Shown here in pieces: positions 1 to 773 of a DNA stretch of 773 nucleotides. A program made the translations under genes and the position numbers. Origin of the DNA: Escherichia coli (lineage in GTDB: Bacteria > Pseudomonadota > Gammaproteobacteria > Enterobacterales > Enterobacteriaceae); assembly GCF_003334385.1 (NCBI RefSeq), contig NZ_QOWN01000145.1, one strand, 5' to 3'. The notes beneath the pieces were generated by a model. It was given only the letters and a program-made list of their open reading frames with translations. It ran no database searches and was not told the origin of the DNA. Each line of letters starts with the position of its first letter. The first letter of the stretch is position 1.

Positions 1-773
1 AACATGGCCTGGTGTCTGTGGGATATGCTGACCCATCCACGCTACGGCATGGGGAAACGTCTTGGTGCGGCGGATGTGGACAAATGGGCGCTGTATGTCA
101 TCGGCCAGTACTGCGACCAGTCAGTACCGGACGGCTTTGGCGGCACGGAGCCGCGCATCACCTGTAATGCGTACCTGACCACACAACGTAAGGCGTGGGA
201 TGTGCTCAGTGATTTCTGCTCGGCGATGCGCTGTATGCCGGTATGGAACGGGCAGACGCTGACGTTCGTGCAGGACCGACCGTCGGATAAGGCGTGGACC
301 TATAACCGCAGTAATGTGGTGATGCCGGATGATGGCGCGCCGTTCCGCTACAGCTTCAGCGCCCTGAAAGACCGCCATAATGCCGTTGAGGTGAACTGGA
401 TTGACCCGAACAACGGCTGGGAGACGGCGACAGAGCTTGTTGAAGATACGCAGGCCATTGCCCGTTACGGTCGTAATGTTACGAAGATGGATGCCTTTGG
501 CTGTACCAGCCGGGGGCAGGCACACCGCGCCGGGCTGTGGCTGATTAAAACGGAGCTGCTGGAGACGCAGACCGTGGATTTCAGCGTCGGCGCAGAAGGG
601 CTTCGCCATGTACCGGGCGATGTTATTGAAATCTGCGATGATGACTATGCCGGTATCAGCACCGGTGGTCGTGTGCTGGCGGTGAACAGCCAGACCCGGA
701 CGCTGACGCTCGACCGTGAAATCACGCTGCCATCCTCCGGTACCACGCTGATAAGCCTGGTTGACGGAAGTGG
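1..773 (+). CDS. J: Internal fragment (5' and 3' partial) of phage tail tip / host-specificity protein J (lambda gpJ-like central tail fibre protein); central conserved region, not the C-terminal receptor-binding region
   Basis: Seen in sequence: frame +1 from nt 1 is open for 257 consecutive codons to the window edge, with the last 2 nt being a partial codon. Codon usage is enterobacterial/lambda-like (ctg, ccg, gcg, cgc and cgt preferred). From recall: the translation matches the gpJ segment that starts ...NMAWCLWDMLTHPRYGMGKRLGAADVDKWALYVIGQYCDQSVPDGFGGTEPRITCNAYL... and continues ...HVPGDVIEICDDDYAGISTGGRVLAVNSQTRTLTLDREITLPSS.... The ATG at nt 2-4 is an internal Met codon, not the start; gpJ begins several hundred codons upstream. 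This CDS is absent from the ORF track, presumably because the track requires a start and stop within the window. Confidence 0.93.

Follow-up and report, generated by a model that had tools for sequence, protein, structure and literature searches.

A 773-base stretch read as an internal segment of a lambda-type gpJ gene with a shadow open reading frame on its opposite strand

Introduction

gpJ closes the siphovirus tail tube and also goes by the names tip attachment protein J, host specificity protein J and central tail fiber J. In cryo-EM papers it is described as a trimeric baseplate-hub and central-fibre protein (PMC11101478; PMC10721106). Its parts are HDII, the HDII-insertion, HDIII, HDIV, FNIII domains, a helical shaft and a beta-prism fibre (PMC11101478; PMC10721106). 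Insertions have been delimited at residues 72-215, where an Ig-like domain is found, and at residues 483-569, where a beta-sandwich lies within HDIV (PMC10721106). The LamB-binding domain is the C-terminus of the protein (PMC11101478), which falls outside the stretch of DNA considered here.

Genes may also carry long open reading frames (ORFs) on their opposite strand. In the frame that Mir et al. call -1, an antisense frame in which single sense codons set the stops, such long ORFs are attributed to codon usage (PMC3454372). Mir et al. 2012 cite Merino 1994 and Silke 1997 for the codon-usage origin of antisense ORFs (PMC3454372). Some authors argue for more long antisense ORFs than would be expected from codon usage (PMC3454372, PMC7457138).

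The window, that is the whole stretch of DNA that was analysed (773 bases), is almost certainly an internal segment of a lambda-type gpJ gene lying on the + strand, the 162-aa ORF on its minus strand being, with the same near certainty, a by-product of codon usage. Such a feature, made of a fragment of a textbook gene and the shadow ORF expected from it, is already known.

Results

The open frame of the window

Translation of the 773-base window in + frame 1 gave 257 codons with 0 stops, and the frame reaches both window edges. A reading made from the sequence only had claimed that this frame is open throughout, and this was confirmed for 257/257 codons; re-translation brought up none of the overlooked stops that would have spoken against it. 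The remaining five frames of the window contain 11, 18, 5, 10 and 1 stops. With 59% G+C in the window, the per-codon stop probability calculated from base composition is 0.036, and the chance of finding 257 open codons is 7e-5 by the analytic route and 1e-4 by shuffling (20,000 shuffles of the window). The openness of + frame 1 is far beyond chance. G+C at codon positions 1, 2 and 3 of this frame amounts to 0.60, 0.48 and 0.70, respectively, and A occupies 9% of the third positions.

The ORF listing of the window contains 9 ORFs at a minimum of 20 aa, of which just one has at least 60 aa:

121 to 609, minus strand: 'shadow' ORF of 162 aa lying antisense to gpJ, in the frame that is its exact codon complement, and taken not to be a gene

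By its own description, the ORF lister leaves out ORFs running off either end, and + frame 1 is missing from the list because it crosses the edges and is dropped. The sequence-only reading had stated that the coding frame is absent from the ORF track and that an antisense ORF is reported, which is indeed what the listing holds, with the 162-aa minus-strand ORF in it.

Identity with lambda-type gpJ

Over all 773 bases, the window DNA is 100% identical to the prophage gpJ gene of E. coli SCU-104, and its identity to lambda J is 98.6% over 773 bases. There are 11 nucleotide differences between the window and lambda; 9 of these are at third codon positions and all 9 are synonymous. The window translation corresponds to gpJ residues 271-527 and matches the cryo-EM chains 8iyk_J and 9e7m_Ja with E ~6e-179, 255 of the 257 residues being shared with the lambda gpJ chains (99.2% identity). 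Two substitutions were read off the structure-chain alignment: at gpJ 368 (window 292-294), the window has Ala instead of the Thr of lambda, and at gpJ 519 (window 745-747) it has Thr instead of Ala. DNA identity, phase and homology led to the following assignment:

1 to 773, plus strand: internal fragment of the gpJ CDS in frame 1, with codons 271-527 and 2 further bases belonging to codon 528

Family searches with the window translation matched PHROG 31 ('central tail fiber J') as well as the NCBIfam model lambda_TipJ (NF049904), the latter at profile positions 271-527. The score of 601 bits for the latter is under the 1950-bit cutoff because the fragment spans just 257 of the 1163 profile positions. 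The full-length SCU-104 CDS (L001 5191-8601, L001 being the SCU-104 locus) reaches 2273 bits against the same model, for which 1950 is the curated cutoff. The window probably derives from such a full-length gpJ gene.

A domain match was located in the + frame:

178 to 684, plus strand: part of the fragment that matches Pfam PF13550 Phage-tail_3, window residues 60-228, gpJ ~330-498, E = 3e-44

It spans model positions 1-162 of 164 and is found at the position expected for the hub module. As the beta-sandwich insertion covers residues 483-569, the last ~45 window residues enter the HDIV insertion. The window thus encodes part of the hub-domain core along with the beginning of the HDIV beta-sandwich, and the receptor-binding end is not in it.

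The SCU-104 locus and the spread of the segment

In the SCU-104 locus L001, the gpJ CDS extends over 5191..8604 and the window lies at 6001..6773, base 1 of the window being the first base of codon 271. The matching gene is annotated as 'gpJ: phage attachment tail tip protein J' in a chromosomal prophage. The tail genes follow each other in the order tape measure, M-like, L, K-like C40 peptidase, I, J, Lom and Stf, which parallels that of lambda NC_001416 (H, M, L, K, I, J, lom, stf). Upstream of gpJ, the M-like 'phage tail protein' gene (L001:2785-3114, + strand) has an internal stop and carries a pseudogene annotation; the SCU-104 prophage is therefore possibly tail-defective and may be unable to build tails despite its intact gpJ.

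The segment is widespread. It was found in 4,534 of the 5,426 complete E. coli genomes, mostly at 95-99% identity, and the number of copies in a genome has a median of 3 and a maximum of 14. The J segment is in effect a dispersed repeat in E. coli, and this is relevant to read mapping and assembly. A 98.6% match to the window was also found at 16235-17007 of MW057783.1 ('Campylobacter phage CJLB-4', host Campylobacter jejuni, 48,361 bp). Its coordinates are nearly those of lambda (48,502 bp), and the record looks like lambda DNA under another name, possibly as a result of contamination or spike-in.

These observations bear on the idea that the + frame is the decaying remnant of a gpJ pseudogene in a defective prophage. 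The pseudogene flag on the M-like neighbour in SCU-104, the sole 100%-identical context examined, goes in this direction, and so does the number of copies per genome, many of which likely reside in cryptic prophages. However, the gpJ of SCU-104 is an intact 1137-aa CDS that scores above the curated NCBIfam cutoff, and the 9 synonymous changes among the 11 differences from lambda point to purifying selection until the recent past. Decay is hence an unlikely description of the + frame, and pseudogene status would in any case leave the choice of the coding frame unchanged.

Anatomy of the antisense frame

The antisense ORF is in register with the gpJ codons, of which it is the exact codon-for-codon complement. 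Two sense codons define it in the window:

607 to 609, plus strand: CAT codon for His473 of gpJ, which reads ATG on the other strand and is there chosen by the lister as the antisense start

121 to 123, plus strand: sense codon TCA, Ser311 of gpJ, whose complement TGA is the single in-window stop of the antisense frame

Antisense stops can arise solely opposite the sense codons TTA, CTA or TCA, which occur 0, 0 and 1 times, respectively, in + frame 1 of the window. Within the window, no stop interrupts the antisense frame from 771 down to 124, a stretch of 216 codons, and the length of '162 aa' is due to the first in-window ATG sitting at 609. The open run grows to 639 codons when the frame is followed through the SCU-104 locus (L001:6121-8040, window 121 to ~2040, minus strand), from which a 564-aa ORF results by the lister's rule. 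The corresponding open run has 705 codons in lambda (L002) and 850 in phage 4A7 (L012). Gene-wide, the TTA, CTA and TCA codons of SCU-104 gpJ are at residues 42, 126, 201, 311, 951, 1004 and 1075, that is 7 antisense stops in 1137 codons.

With a GC3 of ~0.66-0.70 and A at just 9-12% of third positions, J seldom uses the A-ending codons TTA, CTA and TCA, and long antisense open runs follow automatically. The predicted antisense product contains 14% Arg and has a pI of 11.7, the kind of composition that shadow ORFs in GC-rich coding sequence typically have. In the lambda RefSeq record, 'orf206b' (L002:7833-8453, minus strand; NC_001416 20147-20767) is a hypothetical protein located antisense within orf-401, the N-terminal part of stf; its annotation may be a historical one, of a shadow ORF like that seen here.

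The check with partial ORFs at the window edges, which the sequence-only reading had proposed, favours + frame 1, open to both edges, but such a listing would also show the antisense frame as a partial ORF. Given its 216 codons in the window and 639 in context, length is a weak discriminator even with partial ORFs. The choice of frame needs homology, coding statistics or substitution patterns, and ORF length alone is untrustworthy here.

Antisense length under codon usage

A resampling null was used in which the gpJ protein was kept fixed and synonymous codons were redrawn. When usage was taken from the genes H, L, K, I and lom, the longest antisense run of the window had a median of 169 codons, and runs at least as long as those found were frequent (P(>=162) = 0.54, P(>=216) = 0.30). 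With the usage of J itself, the probabilities for the window were 0.70 for >=162 and 0.43 for >=216. The in-window antisense ORF is fully expected from codon usage. Over the whole gene, the run of 639 codons exceeds the median run of the resampled genes (295-386); its P is 0.012 when codons follow the neighbours and 0.07 when they follow J itself.

It is at this gene-wide scale that the minus-strand ORF, which has 162 aa in the window and reaches 564 aa in context, could be taken for a genuine antisense overlapping gene in J. The antisense run across J is unusually long in SCU-104, lambda and phage 4A7 alike (639, 705 and 850 codons), P(>=639) is 0.012 when the usage comes from the neighbouring tail genes, and an excess of long antisense ORFs is argued for by some authors (PMC3454372, PMC7457138). 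On the contrary, P(>=639) rises to 0.07 with J's own usage, and the 7 stops observed against 10.5 expected do not depart significantly from expectation (P = 0.18).

TCA makes up 5 of the 82 Ser codons of gpJ and 59 of 283 (20.8%) in the neighbouring genes (Fisher P = 0.0015). This depletion is found because stf, which is compositionally distinct, skews the neighbour pool. The stf gene (L001:9338-12310, + strand) has a GC3 of 0.49, compared with 0.61-0.67 in the other tail genes, and uses TCA for 45 of 160 Ser; its codon usage suggests a mosaic origin. Without stf, 10.5 antisense stops are expected and 7 observed, a difference that is not significant (Poisson P = 0.18). TCA depletion as a sign of selection on the antisense frame was dropped, being driven by stf and not significant without it.

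Coding scores and substitution patterns

A codon-usage log-odds score was built from six tail genes of the neighbourhood, gpJ being left out. In bits per codon, + frame 1 scored +0.246 as a whole and +0.235 over the span of the antisense ORF, which itself scored -0.073; every frame except + frame 1 was below zero. The comparison of coding scores between + frame 1 and the minus-strand ORF, which had been put forward together with the sequence-only reading, favours + frame 1 (+0.25 vs -0.07 bits per codon).

Substitutions were counted in codon alignments of eight homologous segments with the window, which gave the following nucleotide differences at sense positions 1/2/3 and synonymous:non-synonymous changes in either frame:

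Lambda: positions 1/2/3, 2/0/9; sense 9:2, antisense 3:8

Three phages, 95-96% identity: positions 1/2/3, 2-3/2/24-37; sense 23-34:4-5, antisense 1-2:25-38

Four phages, ~79% identity: positions 1/2/3, 42-43/25-28/105-110; sense 74-78:54-59, antisense 8-9:121-127

Changes are mostly synonymous in the sense frame and nearly all non-synonymous in the antisense frame, from which it follows that selection kept the protein of the + frame and not that of the antisense one. This is difficult to reconcile with an antisense gene, and the stops of the relatives go the same way. In the window, the antisense frame of relatives is stopped at 178 and 592 (L003, L004, L009) or at 283 (L006, L008), and the stop at 121 is missing from several of them; some relatives have no antisense stop here. 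Within the long interval, antisense stops are found in relatives at reference residues 330, 365, 468, 565, 610, 812, 915 and 940, and the longest antisense runs of relatives fall to 331-446 codons. The antisense ORF is therefore not conserved, since it is interrupted in relatives at scattered positions that are themselves non-conserved.

Moreover, an overlapping gene would be expected to leave a trace in J itself, and synonymous divergence of J is not lowered in the interval: no dip was seen across residues 311-951 (0.28-0.54 per bin vs 0.32-0.47 before) in a scan of 6 relatives only, with coarse 100-codon bins.

Searches for an antisense product and its signals

The 162-aa antisense ORF gave no match in PHROGs, NCBIfam or Pfam even at E <= 1-10, and the exact 162-aa and 564-aa antisense sequences are absent from a collection of 15 billion proteins. 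No promoter-like site was detected on either strand of the window. Direct reading of the 25 nt upstream of the minus-strand ATG (AGATTTCAATAACATCGCCCGGTAC) showed no AGGAGG-like Shine-Dalgarno, and an Rfam scan of both strands of the window at E <= 1 returned no match. One terminator-like hairpin was found on the + strand at 603-620, compared with 0.5 expected in shuffles; this is no more than chance would give, and the hairpin falls within the coding region.

The lack of a family match, of an exact database entry, of a promoter-like site and of a Shine-Dalgarno in these searches counts against an antisense overlapping gene, as does an Arg-rich product (14%, pI 11.7) of shadow-ORF-like character. 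Altogether, such a gene in J appears extremely improbable. The same very low probability applies to the broader proposal that the long antisense frame of J (639-850 codons) was kept by selection, whether for a translated protein or through avoidance of TCA, TTA and CTA. The antisense frame probably yields no functional translated product. That + frame 1 is the real gene and the minus-strand ORF an artefact, as had been claimed from the sequence, is now supported by homology, substitutions, codon score and non-conservation.

Discussion

J is among the best-studied phage genes, and the present feature carries little biological weight; its usefulness is that of a methodological caution. In practice, ORF lists made on short windows omit the genes that span the window and may leave just a shadow ORF of the opposite strand.

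The minus-strand ORF compares well with the shadow ORFs of GC3-rich genes (Merino 1994 and Silke 1997, cited in PMC3454372): it occupies the same frame, its length is reproduced by resampling, it is non-conserved and the family searches gave no homologues. Within the window there is no departure from this pattern, and gene-wide the run of 639 codons is in the upper tail (P 0.01-0.07).

On the + strand, the closest described system is lambda gpJ (NP_040600.1; PDB 8iyk, 8xcg, 9e7m), with which the gpJ of the window shares codon phase and neighbouring genes. The SCU-104 gpJ (1137 aa) and lambda J (1132 aa) are 89% identical, and their divergence is mostly C-terminal, outside the window. J-like tail tip proteins of siphophages and tailocins, namely the F2-pyocin tail fibre 25vf, 9l9p and gp24 of 23gd, also align at equivalent positions, ~278-531, with E-values of 1e-36 to 8e-67. 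These are far more distant than lambda J, and the window therefore belongs to the lambda J subgroup itself.
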